A DNA stretch of 39,949 nt from a virus (taxonomy: Duplodnaviria > Caudoviricetes), in IMG/VR virus record IMGVR_UViG_3300012200_000010, positions 1 to 39,949 of that record; one strand, written 5' to 3'. The position numbers and the translations under genes were made by a program. Shown in pieces: positions 4,983-37,445 of this stretch; position 1 is the first letter of the stretch, and every line of letters starts with the position of its first letter. The notes beneath the pieces were generated by a model that was given only the letters and a program-made list of their open reading frames with translations, ran no database searches and was not told the origin of the DNA.

Positions 4983-5120
4983 ATGAAAACTGATCTACGT
5001 ATCCTGAGGACCTCGCTAGACTACCGCGGGATGTTTGTTCAGCCGTCCGAGAGGGCTTTGATCCTCGTGGCGTGGCTGCACCTGTGGGAGGACTTCTCCT
5101 CTCTGCTATGTAGACTGTAA
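4983..5120 (+). CDS. Putative 45-aa peptide
   Basis: GGAG SD at 4972; MKTDLRILRT...ALILVAWLHLW... Confidence 0.35.
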   Translation: MKTDLRILRTSLDYRGMFVQPSERALILVAWLHLWEDFSSLLCRL

Positions 5121-5172: not shown

Positions 5173-6060
5173 ATGCCAAGGGGAGTTTACAACAGAAAAA
5201 ACAGAAAGGGAAAGGTTGCTACCGTGCCGGAAGCGCCAACGAACGGCGGCAAAAAGATCGCAGACGATGTTCTGCAGAACGTTGCTACCATCGCCGACAC
5301 GATCAAGCAAGCCCACTCGCGTATCGACGACACCCTCATGGAGATCGGGAAGCACTTTTACGAGATCCGACAACTCTTTGACGGCGTGCCGGCCGACATC
5401 CGACGCCTTCACAGCGTCCCATCGTTCACCATTTGGATGAACAAGACTGCGCCAGAAGTATGCGGCATGACCAGCAGAACGGCGTGGCACTACTACAAGA
5501 ACTATTCCGAAGCGATCGCCGCGGGATTGAAACCTGAGACCATCATCGCGCTGGCTCCTACGGTTCTCAAGAACGAGAAGCCACGCAAGGCGGTATTCGC
5601 CGCCATCAGCCGAAACCCTGTTCTCGCTACCCAATTGAACGAAGCTGCAGCCAAGCATGGCCCTGGGCCAAAGGTTGCGCTCCGCAAGATTGCCGAGAGC
5701 CAGGAAGTCAAAGACCTCTTGAAGAGGATCGAAGCACCTCCTCGGTCTCGAGTAGACCGACTGGAGGCAGCCATCGTCAACGCCTACAAGCCTGTGTTTC
5801 TGGCTGACGTGTTTGACCTTGACGCCGCCAACAAAGCACTGGAAGAGTTCTCCGGTGCCGTCCGAAACGCAGCAGGCAAGCTGCGCTTGGGATCGCACAT
5901 CACCCTGACGTTTACTCCGTTCACCGAGGTCCCGGCGGGAGTCACCCCGGCGGCAACCTACGCTTCCCCGGAAGCCGAACAGAACGCCGAAGCTATCCTG
6001 AAGCAATTGGCCGCGGCGGGATACGAAATGCCGAAGAAGCGAAAGGCTGCGGCGGCTTAG
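5173..6060 (+). CDS. DUF3102-like putative DNA-binding protein
   Basis: EIGKHFYEIR...FTIWM...GMTSRTAWHY pattern; basic termini. Confidence 0.6.
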   Translation: MPRGVYNRKNRKGKVATVPEAPTNGGKKIADDVLQNVATIADTIKQAHSRIDDTLMEIGKHFYEIRQLFDGVPADIRRLHSVPSFTIWMNKTAPEVCGMTSRTAWHYYKNYSEAIAAGLKPETIIALAPTVLKNEKPRKAVFAAISRNPVLATQLNEAAAKHGPGPKVALRKIAESQEVKDLLKRIEAPPRSRVDRLEAAIVNAYKPVFLADVFDLDAANKALEEFSGAVRNAAGKLRLGSHITLTFTPFTEVPAGVTPAATYASPEAEQNAEAILKQLAAAGYEMPKKRKAAAA

Positions 6061-8068: not shown

Positions 8069-8389
8069 ATGAAAAAGAAATTAATTAAAATACACGGAGA
8101 TAGACGAGATAGGCGAAAAAAGCACCGTCGCGTGGCAGACGAGATAAATAAAAAATTTCAAATCTTGTTTGATAACCTTGCAAAAATTGAGAAAAAGATA
8201 GAGATGCGCAAGGAAACTGCCAAACAGCTTGCTAAGGAAGTTGCCAAACAGCTTGCTAAGGAAGTTGCCAGTGACATTGCCCGTCTCAGGACAGCTCAGC
8301 GAGAAATTGCGGAGAAAACGGCACATGTTCATTTCGTAGTCGACAACCTGGTCTCGTCGATAGCGGATATCCGAAGGAAAACGCGATGA
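8069..8389 (+). CDS. Basic coiled-coil protein
   Basis: SD GAGGTG; AT-rich; AKQLAKEV duplicated. Confidence 0.6.
   Translation: MKKKLIKIHGDRRDRRKKHRRVADEINKKFQILFDNLAKIEKKIEMRKETAKQLAKEVAKQLAKEVASDIARLRTAQREIAEKTAHVHFVVDNLVSSIADIRRKTR
8218..8270 (+). repeat. In-frame 24-bp tandem duplication
   Basis: TGCCAAACAGCTTGCTAAGGAAGT twice plus TGCCA. Confidence 0.95.
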
Positions 8390-9259: not shown

Positions 9260-9795
9260 GGGTCGTTCTAGCCACAGTTCTGCTATCCTTGGCCGCTTAC
9301 GCAGCCTTGGCGGCCGACCTAACCCCCTCTCCCAAACTAACAGTCCAAGCTCCCACTCCCGCCAGCATCCAAGCCGACATTATCCATGAACGCAAACTAA
9401 GGCAGTACGTGATCGCCGAAAAAGCGGCTCTTTCTGTGTTTCGGCGACACGCGCAGTGCAACCAGTTCGCCGGTCTGGTCGGCGAGCGATCGGTCGAAAC
9501 CGGCCTACCAGCAAGGATCCTGGCCGCAGTCGCGATCGTCGAAAGCAGTTGTAATCCAAACGCTGTATCCCCGACAGGGGACTACGGCCTGTTCCAGGTC
9601 AACGCCAAAGCCCACCACGTCAGTCCGAAAGTGCTGTTGGATCCAGCCAAGAACGCCAGAATAGCGAGCGAGTTTTTGCGCGCGCTGATTCGACAGTACG
9701 GCGCCGTAGAGGGCCTTCATCGTTACAACGGTCTGGGCAATCCAACCAATGCGTATGCCGATCGGGTGTTTCAAGTTGCGGGGTACAAATCATGA
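9256..9795 (+). CDS. Soluble lytic transglycosylase (SLT domain) with N-terminal signal/anchor
   Basis: AVAIVESSCNPNAVS (catalytic Glu), GDYGLFQV, LLDPAKN, RYNG; hydrophobic N-terminus. Confidence 0.88.
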   Translation: MRVVLATVLLSLAAYAALAADLTPSPKLTVQAPTPASIQADIIHERKLRQYVIAEKAALSVFRRHAQCNQFAGLVGERSVETGLPARILAAVAIVESSCNPNAVSPTGDYGLFQVNAKAHHVSPKVLLDPAKNARIASEFLRALIRQYGAVEGLHRYNGLGNPTNAYADRVFQVAGYKS

Positions 9796-9943
9796 AACAT
9801 TTCGTTCTTTTAAACGGTTGGCTTTATGTGCGTCACCCCAAAGTGTATCGGGAGTTTCTTGAGCAGGGGTGCCGCGTTAATTTCATAGGTTGTGGAGCAG
9901 GACATTACCAGGGTTGTGACAAAGCCGAAAAAGGAGACAAATA

Positions 9944-10204: not shown

Positions 10205-10398
10205 CGAAAGTTAGCTGGTGCCTAGCTATGGCGTATATTACTGCGGCGTCACTTGGCGCAGTCATAGGGCTTCACAATCGCCATCACAAACCTGTTTGTA
10301 AAGTCTGTCATTGTGAGCAGGTCGTGTGCCATCGGGAGTGCGGCGAAGAAGCGATGTGCACGATGCGCTGCGAGAGCCTGTGCGGGAGGAAGAAATGA
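10201..10398 (+). CDS. Small Cys-rich protein with N-terminal hydrophobic helix
   Basis: Eight Cys after a TM/signal-like segment. Confidence 0.55.
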   Translation: MTKVSWCLAMAYITAASLGAVIGLHNRHHKPVCKVCHCEQVVCHRECGEEAMCTMRCESLCGRKK

Positions 10399-10662
10399 GT
10401 GACTTCGGCGAACTAAAAGCGGTCTTGAATGGCAGGAAGGATTACCGGTGTGCTTGGTGTGGGGAGAACATCCCACAAGGCACGCCCCATCAGCACTACG
10501 CCGGTATGTGGGACGGCGACTGGCAGAATTGGCGTATGCACCCGGAGTGCTATAACGACGTAGACATGGATGACCAGCTGGATGGCTTCACATTGTACGA
10601 CCACGAAAGACCAGTTCCAGTACAGGAGGAAAAATGAGTGACTTCGGCGAACTAAAAGCGGT
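10393..10662 (+). repeat. 31-bp exact direct repeat at the starts of two adjacent genes
   Basis: AAATGAGTGACTTCGGCGAACTAAAAGCGGT at 10393-10423 and 10632-10662. Confidence 0.95.
10395..10637 (+). CDS. Zinc-finger phage protein
   Basis: RKDYRCAWCGENI...WDGDW..WRMHPEC. Confidence 0.7.
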   Translation: MSDFGELKAVLNGRKDYRCAWCGENIPQGTPHQHYAGMWDGDWQNWRMHPECYNDVDMDDQLDGFTLYDHERPVPVQEEK

Positions 10663-21754: not shown

Positions 21755-22168
21755 TTATTTCTCCTCTAAGAAAAAACCGAGTTCGGTCTGGGCGTTGATT
21801 TCAATCCCAGGTAATGCCTTGTTCAAAAAGTCTATGACCTCAAAGATGTGTCCATCTCTTATGCTATCAAGATGGAAGGATTTTAGCAAGTCACTCAGCG
21901 TGCTTGAAGCACTGAGCTTGCCTTCGTATCCTTTGGCTCTTGATTGACCGGAGCACTTCCACTCCAGGTCTTGGATCAGGAAGCGGTACCCCCCGATCAG
22001 TGATGTAAAGATGCGGCGACCTTTGTTATCCACTTCCCCGAGGTGCCTGAACGAGTACGCGCGGGCCAGCGCGGGATTCCGCAACTGGTACGCGTCCGAG
22101 GAAGGATCATGCATTCTGTTGATGAATCCTATAGCATCTGCCAAAGCCTCAATTCGTTTCGGCGGCAT
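21755..22168 (-). CDS. Virion protein, possibly a degenerate lysozyme-like fold
   Basis: RNP...GRRIFTSLIGG...L..DL...TL..L resembles NNPGN-type phage proteins. Confidence 0.4.
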   Translation of the reverse strand: MPPKRIEALADAIGFINRMHDPSSDAYQLRNPALARAYSFRHLGEVDNKGRRIFTSLIGGYRFLIQDLEWKCSGQSRAKGYEGKLSASSTLSDLLKSFHLDSIRDGHIFEVIDFLNKALPGIEINAQTELGFFLEEK

Positions 22169-22754
22169 GGGAATTCTCCTTCTGTTTTTGAAAGAATCTA
22201 CGTCGGCCTTCTTGAATGTGTTGTATGTGACTAGCAGAAAGCTTCATACCTTTTCTGCCTTCACTCATTCTTTGTTTATGCAGTTCAGATTTTGGTTTTG
22301 CGAGAGCGGCGGTGCTCAGTGTTTTTGATAATTTTATTTTATATTCGGGATCTGACCACCGTTGCCTGGAAGCTTTACCTATCCGCTTTCGGTGTTCTTC
22401 GGAAAGCGTTCTTCCAGTTAATCGAGCTTTCATTTTTTCTATGCCGTCGGTGGTAACAACTACCGACTCTCCGCCGGCGGTAATGTTATAACCAAAATGT
22501 TCGTTGGTTGTATTTAAAAGGATGATCCACAACTTCTCGGTGTTGTTTAAGGACTCCTTTGATTTTGGTTCAGCCAGTACTTGAAGAGAAAACGATTCAC
22601 TTCCGTGTTTGCGTATCGCCTTTCCTATTCTAGTAGGCCGCCCGTGAAGGGCCTGCGATCTGTGCTTTGTCCATCTCGTAGAAAGAGGGACAATTGTCTG
22701 GCCAACGTAGCATTTTTCGGTGACCTCGTTGAACGCGAGGTAAACGATTCCCAT
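22149..22754 (-). CDS. GIY-YIG homing endonuclease with NUMOD3 repeats
   Basis: SD AGGAG; GIVY...YVGQT, R...H, E, GYN; LSEEHRKRIG / KSELHKQRMS repeats. Confidence 0.9.
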   Translation of the reverse strand: MGIVYLAFNEVTEKCYVGQTIVPLSTRWTKHRSQALHGRPTRIGKAIRKHGSESFSLQVLAEPKSKESLNNTEKLWIILLNTTNEHFGYNITAGGESVVVTTDGIEKMKARLTGRTLSEEHRKRIGKASRQRWSDPEYKIKLSKTLSTAALAKPKSELHKQRMSEGRKGMKLSASHIQHIQEGRRRFFQKQKENSHAAETN

Positions 22755-22768
22755 AGCTGTTCTCCTTT

Positions 22769-23767
22769 TTACTCTAACGACCAAATTCCATTGCTGAGGT
22801 AACCGTGCAGACCGCCACTCAACTTGATCATAATGACCCAGCCGGCGGGGAGATGCTTTACTTCAACTACTTTCTCAGCCACAACGCCGTGGACGACGCG
22901 ATTGAGAGAATTAATAGCCCTTACGTAACCGCGGTTCGCGCAAGAGAAGGTGTGGGATTCACTGACGTCGATGCTACGTCCATTTTCGGTGGTAACCCTA
23001 ACACAATTTTGGCGGAACGTAGTAATTTCCTCGACCATTTCCGGGCCCTCAAAGCCGAGCACTTCATCACCTTCTCTAAGCGAGCCAGCGATCCTCTCGG
23101 AGCCGTCTGCCATCATGATCATTGTATCAGGGGAAACGCACGCCACGCCTGCCGCGCCGATCGCCGAATCAGCTAATCCACCTACGAGGCCCATCCACGA
23201 GGTGGATGCGGCTTCGTTGGCGTTGGCTTGGGCCGCTTCATTCGATTGCGCTGTATTTCCCAGGCTGCCAAATTCCGCCGCCGGCGACATAGTCTCGGCG
23301 CCAAGCTTGGCTTCCTGCGTCATACCAAGATCGCGTTCCTTGCGGCCGATGTTATAATCTTCCGCTGTGATCTCGGCCTGTTGGTCCGCCTCTTTGCCAA
23401 GGATCTCCGCGGTAGCACCAGCGCGCACAGCTTGGGTAACTCCGGACTCGACGCCAGGAACTGCGCTGGTCATAGCCGCGTGCTCGCCGATATGCCTGTT
23501 AACCTTCTGAATGTTGGCCGCAGATGCGTTCGTGGCCTGGGATCTGCGGGCCGCCAACTCTTCCGACGACATGCCGTGCTCGGTGTTGATGATCTTGTCC
23601 CATCCGGCTTTAAGGGAGTTGTACATGGATGAGCCCATGCCGAACACCGTTTTGTAGGAGTCGTGCATGATGCTCGTGAAGTCTTGCGCGCCCTTGAGGG
23701 CGGCTTGCTGCGCACCGGACGGATCGCAGTTCTTATAAATCTTGCCTACGTATTTGAAAGTTTTCAT
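22769..23767 (-). CDS. Pilot/ejection-like protein with C-terminal Hint domain
   Basis: Ala/Gln-rich helical body; CVSPDTMIMMADGS (block A), L..GD.V, VSESHTF (block B), YLSNGIW (block G-like). Confidence 0.8.
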   Translation of the reverse strand: MKTFKYVGKIYKNCDPSGAQQAALKGAQDFTSIMHDSYKTVFGMGSSMYNSLKAGWDKIINTEHGMSSEELAARRSQATNASAANIQKVNRHIGEHAAMTSAVPGVESGVTQAVRAGATAEILGKEADQQAEITAEDYNIGRKERDLGMTQEAKLGAETMSPAAEFGSLGNTAQSNEAAQANANEAASTSWMGLVGGLADSAIGAAGVACVSPDTMIMMADGSERIAGSLREGDEVLGFEGPEMVEEITTFRQNCVRVTTENGRSIDVSESHTFSCANRGYVRAINSLNRVVHGVVAEKVVEVKHLPAGWVIMIKLSGGLHGYLSNGIWSLE

Positions 23768-31142: not shown

Positions 31143-31763
31143 TTACGACTTCTGGAACGAAGAGTCGTCGTGTCCCGGTTTGAAAATCGGGTGATGCAGA
31201 ATTTCGCCGTCTTCCATATAAACCATAATTACGCCGCCTGGTTTTACGGCCTTGTCTTCCTTGTGATCTCGGCCGATAAGAAGATGGTTTAAAGAGTGAA
31301 CGATCGAGGAGTGCGCCACAACCACAACAGGATGACCTTGCTTCCATCCTAGTTGAATAGCTTCTGCCAGAATAGGCCATACGCGTGATTCGAACTGGCT
31401 GATTGATTCGCCACCAGGAGGAACTACATCCGGGTGCGCGTCATAGAACGCCATTTTCTTTAGATTCTGGTCGTTCTTTGGTTTACCTGTTAGCTCACCG
31501 ATGTTCCACGGCTTGAGATTGTCGATTGTTTCCGGCTGATAATCATCTTGGTCGTCGCAGATGATTGTTGCTGTTTGAATGGAACGGGTCATCCTAGAAC
31601 AGAAGACACGGTGCCAATCTAGTTCGTCGAAGAATTCTCGAAGAACGTGGGCGTCGAGGAAACCTTCTTTGTTCAACGCCGAGTCGCGTTGTCCGCGAAA
31701 GATGTTCAGTCCGCTGTCCGTAGTCGACCCATGCCGTACTAGGTACATGAGTGGCTTTTTCAT
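31143..31763 (-). CDS. Histidine phosphatase superfamily protein
   Basis: YLVRHG motif, S...R..QTA, PGGES, VVVAHS. Confidence 0.9.
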   Translation of the reverse strand: MKKPLMYLVRHGSTTDSGLNIFRGQRDSALNKEGFLDAHVLREFFDELDWHRVFCSRMTRSIQTATIICDDQDDYQPETIDNLKPWNIGELTGKPKNDQNLKKMAFYDAHPDVVPPGGESISQFESRVWPILAEAIQLGWKQGHPVVVVAHSSIVHSLNHLLIGRDHKEDKAVKPGGVIMVYMEDGEILHHPIFKPGHDDSSFQKS

Positions 31764-32822
31764 TTAGAAGCCGCCTGGGTAGAATGGATTGGCCGGCCCG
31801 ATATACAAGCTGCCGGGAGCCGGCATGATTGCGTCGGACGGGAATAATCCACAATTGTCTCGTTCGCGATCCATGCTGCTGCCGGCGCGATCAAGAGACT
31901 CTATCCATAATTTTTGATTGTCCAGGAACTTGGCGCGGACCTTGGGATCCTTCGAATGCATGTACGCGTAGGCCACAAAGCCTTGACGGAAGTAGGCGGC
32001 GTAGTCGTCAGGGATCGGCTCGATCGTTTGTGAAAGAGATGTGAACTGGACTGGCCGCGCCTGACCGAACACGCGTGCTTGCCAAACTTTGCCTTGCTGT
32101 GACGGAATGGGATTCAAACGCAGCCCTTGACCCTTGGGGTTAACGGCGGTCCAAATACCGGTGCCGTCCGCCTGGGTGGTTGCGACCTGAGTTGGATTCG
32201 TTTGAGTGGGGAATACGACATTGACAGGCCAAACCGGCTGTGTCTGGCCGAGCGTGACGCTTTGGGTAAGAGCGTTGGATAGAACCCAGAAGTTTCCGTT
32301 GGGATCTTGAATTTGTAGAAGCGGATTAGAGGGCTGCGAGACGACACCCAACAGCGCGCCGTAAACGCTCCCAGGGCCAGGGTTCGACTGCGAACCTTCA
32401 CCTGTGTTGCCACCACCCCACGTACCGTAAACCAGTTGGTCATTAGGCAGCCAGCAGACTTGTCCCGGCCGGCCGTATTGCGCGGAGGTCTCTGGCAGGT
32501 CTCGGTTGGTCTCGAGCGTGCATTTATCTTTTGGCTCGGACGTTGAATTGATGTCGATAAGAATAGCGTACTCGAGCCACGCCAAAGTGTTGACGTTGAG
32601 CAGCGCGTAATCCTGTTGCCAGGAGTTCGTGTAAAAGAACGGCAGACGGATGCGGTTCCACTTCCAAGGACGACCCTTGGACAGCATCTCTGTCATAACG
32701 TCATTGGCAATCGTCAAAGCCGGTTCTTGTGAAAATCCACCGGTAGAGAGGACTGGGGCGAGGTCGGCGTGCGTACGCGCGTGATCGACTGCGCTCTGAA
32801 GTTTCGTTGTGGAATTTCCCAT
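31764..32822 (-). CDS. Head-tail adaptor-like protein (paralog A)
   Basis: EPA...AN......WKWNR...QQDY...L.P.P...IPD pattern. Confidence 0.6.
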   Translation of the reverse strand: MGNSTTKLQSAVDHARTHADLAPVLSTGGFSQEPALTIANDVMTEMLSKGRPWKWNRIRLPFFYTNSWQQDYALLNVNTLAWLEYAILIDINSTSEPKDKCTLETNRDLPETSAQYGRPGQVCWLPNDQLVYGTWGGGNTGEGSQSNPGPGSVYGALLGVVSQPSNPLLQIQDPNGNFWVLSNALTQSVTLGQTQPVWPVNVVFPTQTNPTQVATTQADGTGIWTAVNPKGQGLRLNPIPSQQGKVWQARVFGQARPVQFTSLSQTIEPIPDDYAAYFRQGFVAYAYMHSKDPKVRAKFLDNQKLWIESLDRAGSSMDRERDNCGLFPSDAIMPAPGSLYIGPANPFYPGGF

Positions 32823-32854
32823 GTGCCTCTCTCCGATGTTCTAATTTGTAGATC

Positions 32855-33487
32855 TTAGTCGTCACTGCCGGGTTCGTAGTTGTACTCTTGAACAGGTCGC
32901 GCGCGATGCGGAACTTCCGACTTCGTGCGGACTTGCTCTCGATTCCTGACTAGCCCTGGTGAAGGACTGCCGGTGCTGGCGCTATTGCGGGTTGGCCGCT
33001 GCATAGCCCAACGGTAATCCGGATCCTTGGGGAACCACGTCTTGCCGCATCGCGAACATAGCCGGAAGGTTACTCCGGTTGTCAGCGTGTGCTGCCACAG
33101 CGCGTAATTCGCTGAGTCGTTGCCCTGGGCCGGCCCGCCATTCATCATGGTCTGGGAGTCGCCGCCCTTCATGTGCGTGCAATTCGTTTCGTCAGAGATA
33201 CGTTTTTCACGCTGGAAGGCAAGAGATTCTTGAACGGTCTCTCGCGAGACGCGCTCCGTCTCCTGTTGCTGTCGGATTTCCAGGACGTCGTTTTTCAACT
33301 TCTCGAGTTCGAGCTTCTCTTTCTCGAGCCGCAACTTCTCGGTCTCGAGTCGGATGAGAGTTATCTCAGCGTCAACTTCGGCTTTCGATTTGTTGATCGT
33401 TTTCCTGGGGACCAACTCTTCGAGAGACTTCGTTTCCACGGGGATCTCGGAGAGACCACCGTCTGTCGGTTCGATTTCCTTACTCAT
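32855..33487 (-). CDS. Coiled-coil protein with C-terminal Zn-binding motif
   Basis: SD AGGAG; LEKEKLELEKL; CTH...H...CSRC. Confidence 0.65.
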   Translation of the reverse strand: MSKEIEPTDGGLSEIPVETKSLEELVPRKTINKSKAEVDAEITLIRLETEKLRLEKEKLELEKLKNDVLEIRQQQETERVSRETVQESLAFQREKRISDETNCTHMKGGDSQTMMNGGPAQGNDSANYALWQHTLTTGVTFRLCSRCGKTWFPKDPDYRWAMQRPTRNSASTGSPSPGLVRNREQVRTKSEVPHRARPVQEYNYEPGSDD

Positions 33488-33577
33488 TGCTTTCTCCTAA
33501 GCACGGAGAGCCGTGCTGGTGACGTTGCGTCAACTCGTGTTCGCTGTTACGCGAATGGCGAATGATCGGCGTCTAGA

Positions 33578-33607
33578 TGTCAAGTTTTATTGGTAAAAAA
33601 CTTGACA
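33578..33607. repeat. Perfect 11-bp inverted repeat
   Basis: TGTCAAGTTTT 33578-33588 / AAAACTTGACA 33597-33607. Confidence 0.85.
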
Positions 33608-33610
33608 AGA

Positions 33611-33692
33611 TGGGGGCTTGCGACCGGGGAGCAAGACCGGCGACCTCCCGACGACTAGTCGGGGCTATTGAAGCTGCCTAAGCTACGCAAGC
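33611..33692 (-). ncRNA. tRNA-like RNA 2 (central triplet AGT, non-canonical loops)
   Basis: Acceptor GCTTGCG/CGCAAGC; anticodon stem CCCGA/TCGGG; variable AGGTC; T stem GCCGG/CCGGT; ends CC-CCA. Confidence 0.7.
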
Positions 33693-33700
33693 GTAGAAAT

Positions 33701-33785
33701 TGGGAGCGCGCGGCAGGCGGCCAACCCTGCGACCTCTCGGTTAAATGCCGAGTGCTCTTTATCGGGCCCACTGAGCTACACGCGC
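33701..33785 (-). tRNA. Aberrant tRNA-Lys(TTT)-like RNA 1
   Basis: Acceptor GCGCGTG/CGCGCGC; D stem GCTC/GAGC; anticodon stem CTCGG/CCGAG, loop CA-TTT-AA; T stem GCAGG/CCTGC with loop GTTGGCCG; ends TC-CCA. Confidence 0.75.
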
Positions 33786-33794
33786 GTAGAACTT

Positions 33795-34001
33795 TTATGG
33801 ATAGATTACGTCGTAGAGCCAGCCGGCCATACTGACGCTTACGCCAACGTAGGCCACACCGAATGCGGCTTCTAGGGGGTGGGTCCAATGGCACGTTTGC
33901 GTACAGGCGAATATCAGTCCGCCGTATGCCAGCATGTAACCCACGAACTGGAGGAACGGTTTGATCTTGACGTTCTGTTCGATTTTGTCTAGGAAGCTCA
34001 T
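33795..34001 (-). CDS. Small membrane protein (2 TM)
   Basis: MSFLDKIEQ...; ATGA coupling. Confidence 0.6.
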   Translation of the reverse strand: MSFLDKIEQNVKIKPFLQFVGYMLAYGGLIFACTQTCHWTHPLEAAFGVAYVGVSVSMAGWLYDVIYP

Positions 34002-34162
34002 ATCTTTCCATCCTTGTGGAGCCTGAACAAATCTCCAACGAAGTGAACCGTAAATCCAAGGCTGAACAACACCTGGGCCACGCCGTGCATGAAAGGGAGC
34101 ACGATCAGTGCGCCCACGAAACCTGCAACCTGAGTTATCAAAATTTGTTTGTCTGTCAGCAT
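33998..34162 (-). CDS. Small membrane protein (54 aa, 2 TM)
   Basis: [24 protein letters not shown]...; overlaps both neighbours. Confidence 0.6.
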
Positions 34163-35025
34163 AGCCCCTTCTCTCGTAAGATCTTGGTGACTTCCCGCTC
34201 GGCGTTTGTGACGGCCGCGGAAATGTCGCCCGGGCGGCCTTGCATGCCGCGGACGCCTTCTGGTCCCGTCTCGCCTTGCGGGCCCTGCTCGCCGCGCTCC
34301 CCGCGCGCGCCTTGCGCGCCGGTGGCACCTTGTGGGCCTTGCGCTCCGGGTGTTCCCTGTTTTCCTTCCGGTCCGCGCTCTCCTGGCGTACCGCCGAAGC
34401 CGCGTTCGCCCTGTGGCCCGCGTTCGCCTGTGGCGCCGATCGCGCCTCGGGGGCCCGGAACCGCGTTCCCGAATCCATCGAGCACACTGCGTTCCTGCAA
34501 AATCCGAATGATCAGCGTCTCAAGATTTATTGCAAATGATTCTAGTTTGGCGTTAACGAAAGCGTCGACAGCCTCGACCGCCTTGGTTATGTCTCCTGGG
34601 TCGCCCTTCTCACCCTTCTCGCCTTCTGGGCCGCGGAGGCCTTGGGGACCAGCAGCGCCAGGGTGCCCTCGCTCGCCTTCGCCTTGAATACCCATCGGCC
34701 CTCGTGGGCCAGTCAGACCGGTTGAGCCGCGCTCTCCCTGCTCCCCGCGATCGCCGCGCGGCCCCTGGGGGCCTACAGGACCTTGCGGACCTGGGCGCCC
34801 TTCTGGACCCGCTGGTCCGTAGATGACGGAAGGACTAGAATGCTCGGCGCCGTCGTCGTAATACTCGTCATACACAACCGCGCGTACGCCCGGTACGTAC
34901 CCGGGGTTCGCGACCTGCAATGACTCAGGCTGGCGCGTCGGTGCAGTTGATTCCGCGTTGTACACCACAAAGTTCAAATGCTCGCAAGTAAGTTTGTCGC
35001 AAACAGCGCATCTACCTGTAGCCAT
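34156..35025 (-). CDS. Collagen-like (Gly-X-Y) protein
   Basis: SD GGAGG; N-terminal CAVC..C.H; two Gly-X-Y runs each ending GDI..AV. Confidence 0.85.
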
Positions 35026-35045
35026 AAGATTCCCTCCGGGAAGCT

Positions 35046-36743
35046 TTAACTTGCTTTCTGTAGAACTGCCACAACCGTGATGTGAACTGTTACTGTCGCC
35101 ACGCTCAAAGCAATTGTCCACGCTGTTGCTGCTGTAGTAGCTGGAAGAGGTACACTGAAACTGATGTTAACCCCGTTAGGAGTAACCGGAGCGGTAGTTG
35201 CCGCTGCAGCACCGCCCGAGTTTAAATCGTAAATAAAGCTGTTCGTTCCGTCGCTTAGAGTGGCCGTAAAAGGAACGTCCGTAGCCAATTCCGTGGTTGT
35301 AATAATCAGCTGAGTGATATCAGCAAAAATCCCTGCGGCTTGCGCTGCCAAAACTGTGGTGGCTGACGAACTGCTTGCGATCGTTGTGGCTTTAGCAACA
35401 GTTTGAGCACGCCGATAAGGCTTGACGAACAGGCTGCCTTCGTAATCGCACTGGAGAGCTACCGATTGACCAGTTGTCAAAGACGGGGCCGAAGTGTTGT
35501 TGACGGCTAAAGTTGCGATAGCGTTTGCCGGGGCCGTGGCGGCCGTTATGACCGCGTCCAACGTTGCCGCGGCTGCGCCTGAAATACCGACCTTCTGCAC
35601 GCCAGCTGTTGCCGCGACGGTCGCCGTACCAGCGACCGAAGACATATCCGTCTTCAGCGCCGTTGTACCAGCGATAACTCCTGCTTTCGTTGTTCCGTCC
35701 GTAAGAGAAGTGAACAGCCCGTTCGTTACGCTGTTCGTGACGCCTAGAACGCCGACTACGTTTACGTCTTGCACGCCGGCCGCCGTAGTGGTCTGGTTGC
35801 TGCGGGCCCTGGTGCCCGCAATGTACATATCCGAACTTGTGCCGATGACCACGCCCGTAGGCGCGGTTCCAAAAGTCTGTGGTGCGCCAAGCACCGTGCT
35901 TGCAACCTGCGTTAGGTTGTCAACCCACGGAGATGTTGATTGGGTAACGCCGACCGTTCCAGTTATCGTCGTAGACGTCAGGGACACAACCCAGGGGTTG
36001 GTGCCTTGGTTCACGGTGCCGATGACTTTCGTGGTTTCGGCACTGAGCGTAGCATTGACCGCGAAAGCGTCGACGCCGGTTGCAACGATCTGCGCCCCGC
36101 GCGCCGTCATCTGGGCTTCAACCGTTTGACCGGTCGTGACCGTGGGCTGCGCCGTGTTGAAGACGCCGCCGATCTGCACCGGGTTCCCGGCCTTCGCCGC
36201 GCCCGTTGCTGAGTCACCTTGAATCGTCCACGGGTTGGTGGACTGCGTAACCCCGACGGTCCCTGTGACCGTGGTGCTCGTCAAACTCACCACCCAGGGG
36301 CTCGTCCCCTGTGTGGCGGATATGGCTCCGGAATCGACGATAATGTGCTGCGCCGAGGTCCAGGCCACCAGGTGGTTCTGGCTGGCGTCGACCTTCTGGG
36401 CGCGAATCTTGGAGTTGGCAGAATCCCAGCCCATCGCCAATGTGCCGGTCGGCGTTGCGCCGCTGGCCGCGTTGTCTGCGAACTGCACGCCGGCCCCGCC
36501 GCCCGTAACGTTCAGGGGGTTTCCAACAGTCCCGAGAGGGTTGGTGCCGTCCGACAACTGCACCGGCAGAGGATTCGTGAACGCTGGCGCGATGCTGTTG
36601 ATGCCCGTCAGGTTTACGTTGCCGCCGCCTCCCCCGCCGCTAGTTCCCGGGGATAGGGACCCATCCGCATTCTGGGTGAAGGCCCAAGTCTTGGTGACCT
36701 GGCTTTCATTTACGGAAGGCGGGTTCTGCGTGTTCAGTCCCAT
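35046..36743 (-). CDS. Fibre-like virion protein
   Basis: T/A/V-rich; [13 protein letters not shown] repeats; N-terminus shared with 37759..39930. Confidence 0.7.
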
Positions 36744-37445
36744 TTAAATCAAACCTTTTTCCTTGAGCAGCTTCTCGACTGCTTTGACGGCAGCCGCTAC
36801 TGCGGCTTCTACGGCTTCTGCCACGGCTGCGCTAATGTCTCCTGCGGGCCCGCGCGCGCCAGGGGTTCCCCTGGGCCCGGGCTCGCCGTTGGCGCCGTCC
36901 CGGCCAGCCGGTCCTTGGGGGCCTGTGAAGCCCTGGGGGCCTGGGTCGCCGTGGGGGCCGTTAAAGCCCTGGGGGCCTCGGGGACCAAAAGGCCCTGGAG
37001 CGCCTTGCGGTCCCGCGGGGCCAGTCGCGCCTACGAAGCCTGTCTCGCCTTTGGGGCCCATCTGTCCCGGCTCACCGGGAACTCCGCGCTCGCCCCTAGG
37101 GCCTGCCGCGCCCTGCGCGCCAGCCTCGCCCTGAGGACCTACGGGGCCTCTTGATCCTTGGGGGCCTGCTTGACCTGCGGGGCCCGTAAAACCGATCTCT
37201 CCGCGCGGGCCGGGGGTATTGGAAAGCCCTGGCTCGCCGCGATCGCCTTTAGGACCTTGGGGGCCCTGGGGGCCAGTCTCACCGCGCGCCCCTGGCCGAC
37301 CCTCGGGACCTTGGGGTCCTGGGTCACCTTTGGGGCCGTAGATCTCGCGCGTCTGGGTGCCTGGTCGCTGCCGCTGTTGCGGCGCGCGGTTGGCTGGAAC
37401 ATATTCCTCGCCTTCCGGGCTCAATAATTTCGGGGTGTCGCTCAT
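36744..37445 (-). CDS. Collagen-like (Gly-X-Y) protein
   Basis: Long Gly-X-Y run ending GDISAAV...LLKEKGLI. Confidence 0.88.

Follow-up and report, generated by a model that had tools for sequence, protein, structure and literature searches.

Two tRNA-shaped genes of a soil phage with a probable helical elbow, possible uncharged stand-ins for attacked tRNA

Do genes that keep the cloverleaf of a tRNA while breaking the rules for its loops still serve translation, or have they been turned to another use? The question is raised by the window studied here, the whole 39,949-nt stretch of a soil-phage record (IMGVR_UViG_3300012200_000010), a phage fragment encoding a helicase, an integrase, a transglycosylase and collagen fibres. 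It contains two tRNA-shaped RNA genes on the minus strand, 8 nt apart, as the original prediction had described. Copy 1 (33701..33785) combines a UUU (Lys) anticodon with A33 and ends in a U-C-CCA tail; copy 2 (33611..33692) has a Thr-like body, an AGU triplet, a C32-G38 pair, C37, no nucleotide 26 and a C-C-CCA tail. Together they retain 41 of the 42 stem pairs of a cloverleaf with a 7-bp acceptor, 3-4-bp D, 5-bp anticodon and 5-bp T stem. A relaxed cloverleaf parser pairs copy 1 completely (acceptor GCGCGTG/CGCGCGC, T-loop GTTGGCCG, tail TCCCA; 21/21 pairs, 20 Watson-Crick) and copy 2 (acceptor GCTTGCG/CGCAAGC, anticodon loop CTAGTCG, T-loop TCTTGCTCC, tail CCCCA) at 20/21, with U13.U22 open. 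The core bases U8, A9, A14, G15, A21, G46 and C48 are kept, and the shared features that had been listed, a TTCTAC leader, TAGCT at positions 8-12 (U8 A9 G10 C11 U12) and the AGGUC loop, are present in both copies. The leader of copy 1 (33786..33791, minus strand) follows an A-rich stretch found upstream of relatives' tRNAs, and that of copy 2 lies within the 8-nt spacer (33693..33700, minus strand). CTAC also precedes ordinary tRNAs (22 cloverleaves in 119 matches of a CTAC-selected pattern), so the leader by itself is not special, and a possible switch, in which the CTAC leader would pair with bases 7-10 as a hairpin, was set aside because it fits ordinary tRNAs as well.

The departures from a tRNA lie in the loops and the tail, where they had been predicted. 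In copy 1, the enlarged D-loop (15 nt; 33758..33772, minus strand) retains GG and includes GGCC (33768-33765) as predicted T-loop partner, the T-loop (8 nt; 33718..33725, minus strand) has G54 and U55 without UUC and offers bases 4-7 as predicted D-loop partners, and A33 replaces U33 in the anticodon loop CATTTAA (33741..33747, minus strand). In copy 2, the D-loop is likewise enlarged (12 nt; 33668..33679, minus strand), with GCA as predicted partner of T-loop bases 4-6, the T-loop (9 nt; 33628..33636, minus strand) has U54 and C55, again without UUC, and C32-G38 could form a sixth pair of the anticodon arm, leaving a 5-nt loop. Absent from both is the 7-nt T-loop with T54 Psi55 C56 R57 A58 and its contacts to G18 and G19 of the D-loop, and in neither is the anticodon loop an open one of 7 nt with both U33 and a purine at position 37. 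Both genes end in N-C-CCA, compared with the canonical mature N73-CCA, which confirms the claimed extra unpaired nucleotide before the encoded CCA and gives tails of 5 nt.

As foreseen for such molecules, standard tRNA finding fails: ARAGORN in standard mode called no tRNA gene in the window, while its mitochondrial mode called the copies Lys(ttt) and Thr(agt) among nine calls. An Rfam scan of the window gave no match at E<=1, the RF00005 cut-off not being reached. The relaxed parser recovered no further cloverleaf from the rest of the window, and no equally good match from 25 shuffled windows. An Allo-tRNA or tRNA-Sec fold was ruled out, the copies having a 7/5 fold with a 5-nt variable loop; the Allo-tRNA and tRNA-Sec folds are 8/4, 9/3 or 8/5, with altered acceptor/T-stem lengths and a long variable arm. 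Also rejected were tmRNA, Y RNA and the remaining tRNA mimics of Rfam, for which ARAGORN and Rfam gave no family-model match, and no Ro60-type family was found among the 30 window proteins scanned.

The copy pair is no assembly error. A second assembly (L022) and runs X1 and X2 carry identical letters across both copies, and runs X3 and X4 show no difference within 33400-33690; the source sample may be among these data, and each of the pairs X1/X2, X3/X4 and X5/X6 resembles a single data set filed twice. A close variant (contig depth 2-5) occurs in X5 and X6, which are probably one sample; it joins 33607 to 33697 and skips 33608-33696, so that copy 2 is absent. Its copy 1 departs in the D-loop only (loose end ATTATCGGCTCCTGA, plus strand): the T-loop and acceptor 3' strand are unaltered, one letter differs after CCA and, read by eye, GCC is still available in the variant D-loop to the unaltered T-loop.

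The suggestion that D-loop/T-loop pairing replaces the elbow proved sound in principle and wrong in its details. The two 5-bp pairings originally proposed are at chance level for their length (P 0.32 and 0.18), CCGAT/GTTGG is not the best register of copy 1 (GGCC/GGCC is), and the copies alone offer 3-4 Watson-Crick pairs, which are not significant in loop shuffles. The idea is supported by a predicted register shared with RNAs of the same design in four unrelated phage records (L273, L445, L446 and L535). Each of the six RNAs has, in its own D-loop, a Watson-Crick complement of T-loop bases 4-6, and the triplet differs every time: GGC, TGC, ATC, CGC and AGC in the first five members and CCA in L535, which drew attention by its helix. 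In the first five members, T-loop base 4 is where the longest Watson-Crick run begins; the register was fixed once those five had been seen (in shuffles, P 0.014 that four members have any register in common). L273 has a 12-nt T-loop that forms seven perfect Watson-Crick pairs with its own D-loop (loop-shuffle P about 0.0002; a random 12-mer set against the searched 5-mer pairs in 3% of trials). Among enlarged-loop RNAs, counting the failing L386, the complement occurs in the own D-loop in 6/7 cases versus 4/42 for foreign D-loops, a result equalled by 2 of 5040 permutations (20 of 5040 by duplex energy), and ordinary tRNAs show the same complementarity in 6 of 230. Pseudoknot-free folding of copy 1 and L273 prefers other helices over the D- and T-stems. 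Given the own-loop complementarity in six RNAs and the 7-bp helix of L273, the elbow has very probably been rebuilt as a helix. To our knowledge, only engineered tRNAs have a D/T-helix elbow, and the main texts of the open-licence literature yielded neither a natural tRNA with such a helix nor a tRNA decoy.

The members were recovered from viral contigs by several routes. A D-arm-only pattern gave 66 matches with one cloverleaf, L273; a pattern excluding A58, run on 41 of 64 parts of the contigs, included L273, L445 and L446 among 120 matches; and model R2, applied to 47 records, gave 13 matches with one new member, L535, although neither R1 nor R2 discriminates well between members and ordinary tRNAs (up to 61 bits). 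Other scans of viral contigs added none: one pattern gave a single match and no cloverleaf, another gave 34 matches including L273 again, and no member was present among the 119 matches of the CTAC-selected pattern (scan nearly complete) or the 103 of an N-CCCA-tail pattern. Compared by BLAST with 50,697 phage records and 72,556 plasmids, the pair matched only ordinary tRNAs in part, or sequences by chance, and the elements of L273, L446 and L535 likewise matched only ordinary tRNAs in part or by chance; six cultured-phage tRNA-Lys matches that were checked are all canonical. No member beyond the known ones occurs in 415 kb of relative and G001 sequence, and none in the phage Tunturi_3. Candidates were discarded where the sole GTDB match covered only 20 residues (L021, not used), where a chance cloverleaf lay within a reading frame (L018:9242), and where a shifted canonical tRNA or chance explained the call (L482, L508).

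The settings of the members differ. L535 (UUU) belongs to a complete 479-kb record, where the genes just before it are canonical Lys(CUU) and Lys(UUU), and L446 (CUU) is the sole Lys(CUU) in the examined parts of a 16% complete record; both stand in tRNA arrays and have normal anticodon loops and ACCA. L273 lies beside an M23 peptidase gene in a 43-kb record without the 210-aa family that adjoins the copies, ends in ACCCA and, like the window, gave no Rfam match at E<=1. L445, with a Phe triplet, four open pairs and no encoded CCA, falls outside both groups. There are no other tRNAs in the records of copy 1, copy 2 and L273. Lysine anticodons occur in 4/6 members. Since member bodies share only 23-37 of 50 positions, they may be convergent.

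Several other structured RNAs were observed alongside. A second structured RNA (L273 694-757, plus strand; fold z -3.7; no Rfam matches), with a 10-bp closing stem and two inner hairpins, lies 10 nt 3' of the L273 element. A separate tRNA-like family in three phage records (L382, L386, L454; around 990-1075) has the D-loop AGAAYCTAG.., a T arm of 5-6 pairs with a bulged G and the loop TGGACAG, and a 6-7-nt anticodon loop GTMAAA(C); it fails the T-loop base 4-6 rule, was missed by RF00005 in G015, and in L386 directly precedes a capsid-like gene. In arrays of G016 (L518, L519) and G049 (L542), many tRNAs have an altered elbow, lacking GG and with TTA or TTG in the T-loop. G016 further encodes a tRNA with a CUA anticodon, and its genes for Lys(UUU), Gln, Thr, Ile, Met and Asn include ones whose variable arm is long.

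Anticodon loop and tail separate the members into two groups. Copy 1, copy 2 and L273 combine an off-rule anticodon loop with N-CCCA, and L446 and L535 have neither. L273 shares C32-G38 and a pyrimidine 37 with copy 2. Among 126 ordinary phage tRNAs, A33 and C32-G38 are absent and pyrimidine 37 occurs twice, and N-CCCA ends 1 of 167 ordinary tRNAs; in other-phage cloverleaves chosen by their N-CCCA tail, A33 occurs in 2/5. Pyrimidine 37 is also found in array tRNAs of G012 and G016, and encoded CCA is missing from many G012 tRNAs. Related prophage records (L223 of G013, L268 of G014) hold genes of identical body with the loops TTTCTAA and TAACTAA and a TCCCA tail, and L514 (G012) encodes two A33-UUU genes (4983-5057 and 5520-5593, minus strand) whose D-loop is 6 nt long and lacks GG, in one array with normal Lys(UUU) and Lys(CUU) genes.

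With a probability of roughly 0.4, we read the copies as uncharged, cleavage-resistant stand-ins that would occupy host proteins attacking tRNA, above all those attacking tRNA-Lys. They would be transcribed with the late structural genes and released as discrete RNAs, and would fold into an L shape with a kissing helix from T-loop base 4. Resistance to T-loop cutters would be expected because no member has U54 plus U55, and aminoacylation or decoding would be poor given the 5-nt tail together with A33 or C32-G38/pyrimidine-37 loops. In the last and weakest step, anticodon- or CCA-directed defence proteins would be bound and host tRNA spared during phage protein synthesis. PrrC cuts between positions 33 and 34. 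Transfer RNA-Lys is a target of PrrC and AriB (PMC13462974, PMC11464382), a T5 tRNA-Lys altered in its stem-loop withstands AriB and restores infection (PMC11464382), Cas12a3 grips the T-arm, acceptor stem and CCA and cleaves the CCA tail (PMC12851939), MenT toxins extend CCA (PMC10435456), and Cash cleaves the T-loop UUC motif, with single changes of U54 or U55 abolishing cleavage (PMC13462974). No member has UUC in the T-loop or U54 with U55, and the target sites of Cash are thus changed. Against a decoy, target binding is still required, and the rebuilt elbow takes away one binding site. A link between helical-elbow RNAs and tRNA-targeting defence is likely. It is doubtful that they extend to a class of armoured decoys, in which the L shape, acceptor stem and a Lys-type anticodon are retained and a freely covarying kissing helix at the elbow and the extra C would yield RNAs neither charged nor cut that jam tRNA-targeting immunity, as part of an overlooked helical-elbow lineage largely missed by tRNA finders.

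A reasonable possibility, if well short of an even chance, is that the copies are working back-up tRNAs, copy 1 for Lys and copy 2 for Thr, whose elbow and anticodon loop are armoured against nucleases, with the tail trimmed and repaired to N-CCA. An end N-C-C-C-A could be N-C-C plus trailer, trimmed and then repaired by the CCA-adding enzyme. Copy 2 retains G1-C72, C2-G71, G35 and U36, the identity set of ThrRS, and engineered suppressor tRNAs in which D- and T-loop form a double helix are reportedly active. The original description of the copies as selected and probably non-decoding is weakened here in its second half: the same elbow occurs in the array tRNA-Lys genes L446 and L535 with a normal loop and ACCA, so having a helical elbow need not mean that decoding is lost. 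Copy 1 and the L535 tRNA-Lys(UUU) have the same anticodon arm except at position 33 (A33 versus U33), canonical tRNAs occupy the same slot in relatives, and the changed T5 tRNA-Lys that withstands AriB is a precedent (PMC11464382). Against a role in translation, the off-rule loop and extra C recur in 3/3 stand-alone members and in neither of the two array members, nucleotide 26 is missing in copy 2, and copy 1 joins a Thr-like body to a Lys anticodon.

The half of that description which held concerns selection, and it bears on whether the copies could be recent pseudogenes of helical-elbow tRNAs, the elbow being an inherited adaptation and the anticodon loop and tail the start of decay. Between the copies, 13 stem pairs are the same, five differ on both sides, two on one side and one is open, as claimed for selected structures. 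Their bodies share 35/50 positions, and the closest of 255 ordinary tRNAs is tRNA-Thr for both (42/50 for copy 1, 40/50 for copy 2). With six random substitutions, no more than one pair is broken in 16% of trials, with eight in 7% and with 15 in 0.2%; this makes decay of an ordinary tRNA unlikely, and a few recent changes on an already rebuilt tRNA would be compatible with these counts. In an alignment of five sequences, itself fitted to the model, 13 of 21 stem pairs vary on both sides, 94% of cells are paired and the T-stem covaries. We consider the pseudogene reading quite unlikely. Only two events (A33 and the extra C) separate copy 1 from an L535-like gene, six substitutions would spare the stems in the 16% of trials just given, copy 2 is missing from the close variant and the element occurs in none of 34 relative loci; on the opposite side, the extra C and C32-G38/pyrimidine 37 recur in the unrelated L273, 41/42 pairs are kept when 15 substitutions would rarely spare them, and the letters are constant across near-identical runs.

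The genomic setting is relevant to a further proposal, that of a role in the late transcript. The sole cultured match of a 352-aa protein is Tunturiibacter phage Tunturi_3 (42.7% identity), a podovirus of Acidobacteriota (PMC11924767), which suggests an acidobacterial host. The copies lie between late genes, immediately before a 210-aa gene with 84 relatives. Among 34 relative loci, some representing the same phage twice and 29 with at least 400 bases upstream, the content of this slot is variable, comprising a canonical tRNA, other structured stretches or, in most, nothing; a helical-elbow element is found in none. The canonical tRNAs are tRNA-Asn (L010, L032) and tRNA-Met (L044, and L026 by eye), all four ending in encoded N-CCA. 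It had been argued that canonical tRNAs at this site in related phages, with the copies as their decayed forms, would count against selection; the tRNAs are there, but the copies differ from them in body and anticodon and are not their decay.

Further features of the slot were noted. The tRNA-Met genes (L026 about 875-950, L044 73-146) have an aberrant D arm and a weak or no RF00005 score. After tRNA-Asn follows a second structured RNA (L032 about 745-810, L010 about 9780-9860) with conserved ends, a variable middle and a possible pseudoknot of GGGGCTT with TAAGCCCC/TAAGCTCCC, possibly a ribozyme or new motif, for which L032 gave no Rfam match. In L011 (G003), about 160 non-coding bases with hairpins (about 9725-9885) received no tRNA call and no fitting Rfam match (checked via L034). 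Just 3' of copy 2, where most close relatives have a hairpin of varying sequence, lies an 11-bp hairpin (33578..33607, minus strand). It opens the conserved leader that precedes the 210-aa gene (33488-33610, minus strand). This multi-hairpin leader runs from the hairpin through a constant GACGCCGA-type linker, a freely varying hairpin and a constant GCAACGTCACCA-type linker to a hairpin ending at the ribosome-binding site; both linkers occur in 20/34 relative loci, the fold z is -5.4, there is no Rfam match, and the leader looks like an undescribed cis-regulatory RNA. No sigma-70-type promoter was found in 32700-34400, and an overlapping 134-aa frame and two small upstream frames had no Pfam or PHROG match. 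Elsewhere in the window, two collagen-repeat proteins and a 565-aa Thr/Ala/Val-rich protein are encoded upstream (34156-37445, minus strand), where relatives have short head-region genes; a histidine phosphatase (31143-31763) lies amid structural genes; a weak Hint-domain match (E 0.0007) adjoins a GIY-YIG homing endonuclease gene in the structural module (22769-23767 and 22149-22784, minus strand); an exact 31-nt direct repeat occurs at gene starts 239 nt apart (10393-10423 and 10632-10662); and 8225-8270 is an exact 22-nt tandem repeat.

In the proposal itself, which we judge very unlikely, the copies would be processing or stability elements of the late transcript, or regulators resembling uncharged tRNA (through RelA, T-box or synthetase binding), unrelated to defence nucleases. 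Their position between late genes and right before a conserved structured leader is consistent with this, as are the other structured RNAs in relatives' slots (L010, L032, L011) and the second RNA 10 nt downstream of the L273 element. RNase P and RNase Z recognise the normal tRNA elbow, and the lost elbow is precisely what they read; moreover, the slot is empty in most relatives, and the Lys anticodons in 4/6 members would be unexplained. That the copies are ordinary tRNA genes in neutral decay, or cloverleaves arisen by chance, is largely refuted. In favour of it, the folding energies taken by themselves do not stand out (z -0.9 and -1.9); against it, 25 shuffled windows gave no match, many loop changes stand beside intact stems and loop-loop complementarity is found in six RNAs.

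Judged from sequence, the copies are real and selected tRNA-derived RNAs of a phage. Few features of tRNA are as conserved as the elbow; if the present interpretation is true, this corner is a replaceable module under phage-host conflict, a natural counterpart of a laboratory design, and phage tRNA genes exist that annotation misses. Either outcome would be useful: a tRNA that functions and is proof against T-loop nucleases, or a decoy RNA that counters defence.

Among known systems, the copies share with canonical tRNA (RF00005) the 7/4/5/5 cloverleaf, U8 A9, A14 G15 and the AGGUC loop, with phage tRNA-Thr most of the body (42/50 and 40/50) and, in copy 1, with the tRNA-Lys of L535 the anticodon arm; unlike canonical tRNA, they lack TTC and have mutually complementary enlarged loops, off-rule anticodon loops and a 5-nt tail. 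Stable RNAs of the T5 RNA 2H kind, from phage tRNA regions, are like the copies non-coding, set in a tRNA context and probably non-decoding, but at about 120-170 nt they are longer, and are set apart here by description; the window has no Rfam match. Transfer RNA-Pyl and type II mitochondrial tRNAs, as treated in the available part of a review of non-canonical natural tRNAs, are functional without G18/G19 and TPsiC and thus lack the conserved elbow bases as the copies do, but their loops are small or non-interacting; that part describes no Watson-Crick D/T helix and does not contain the word 'phage' (PMC7609411). Phage tRNAs with anticodon-loop changes that evade nucleases are known (PMC10264068), and these, such as T5 tRNA-Lys versus PARIS, resemble the copies in being phage-encoded and Lys-centred with changed nuclease target sites; they differ in having a normal elbow and tail and working in translation, the T5-type tRNA-Lys in L523 having TTCGAGT and ACCA. 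The nearest likeness for the elbow is provided by engineered D/T-helix tRNAs, going by the title of the paper that reports them (Kotlova 2007, PMID 17822715): Watson-Crick complementarity between D- and T-loop is also present in the members, weakly in the copies alone, and the engineered molecules are laboratory selections, whereas the copies are natural genes.
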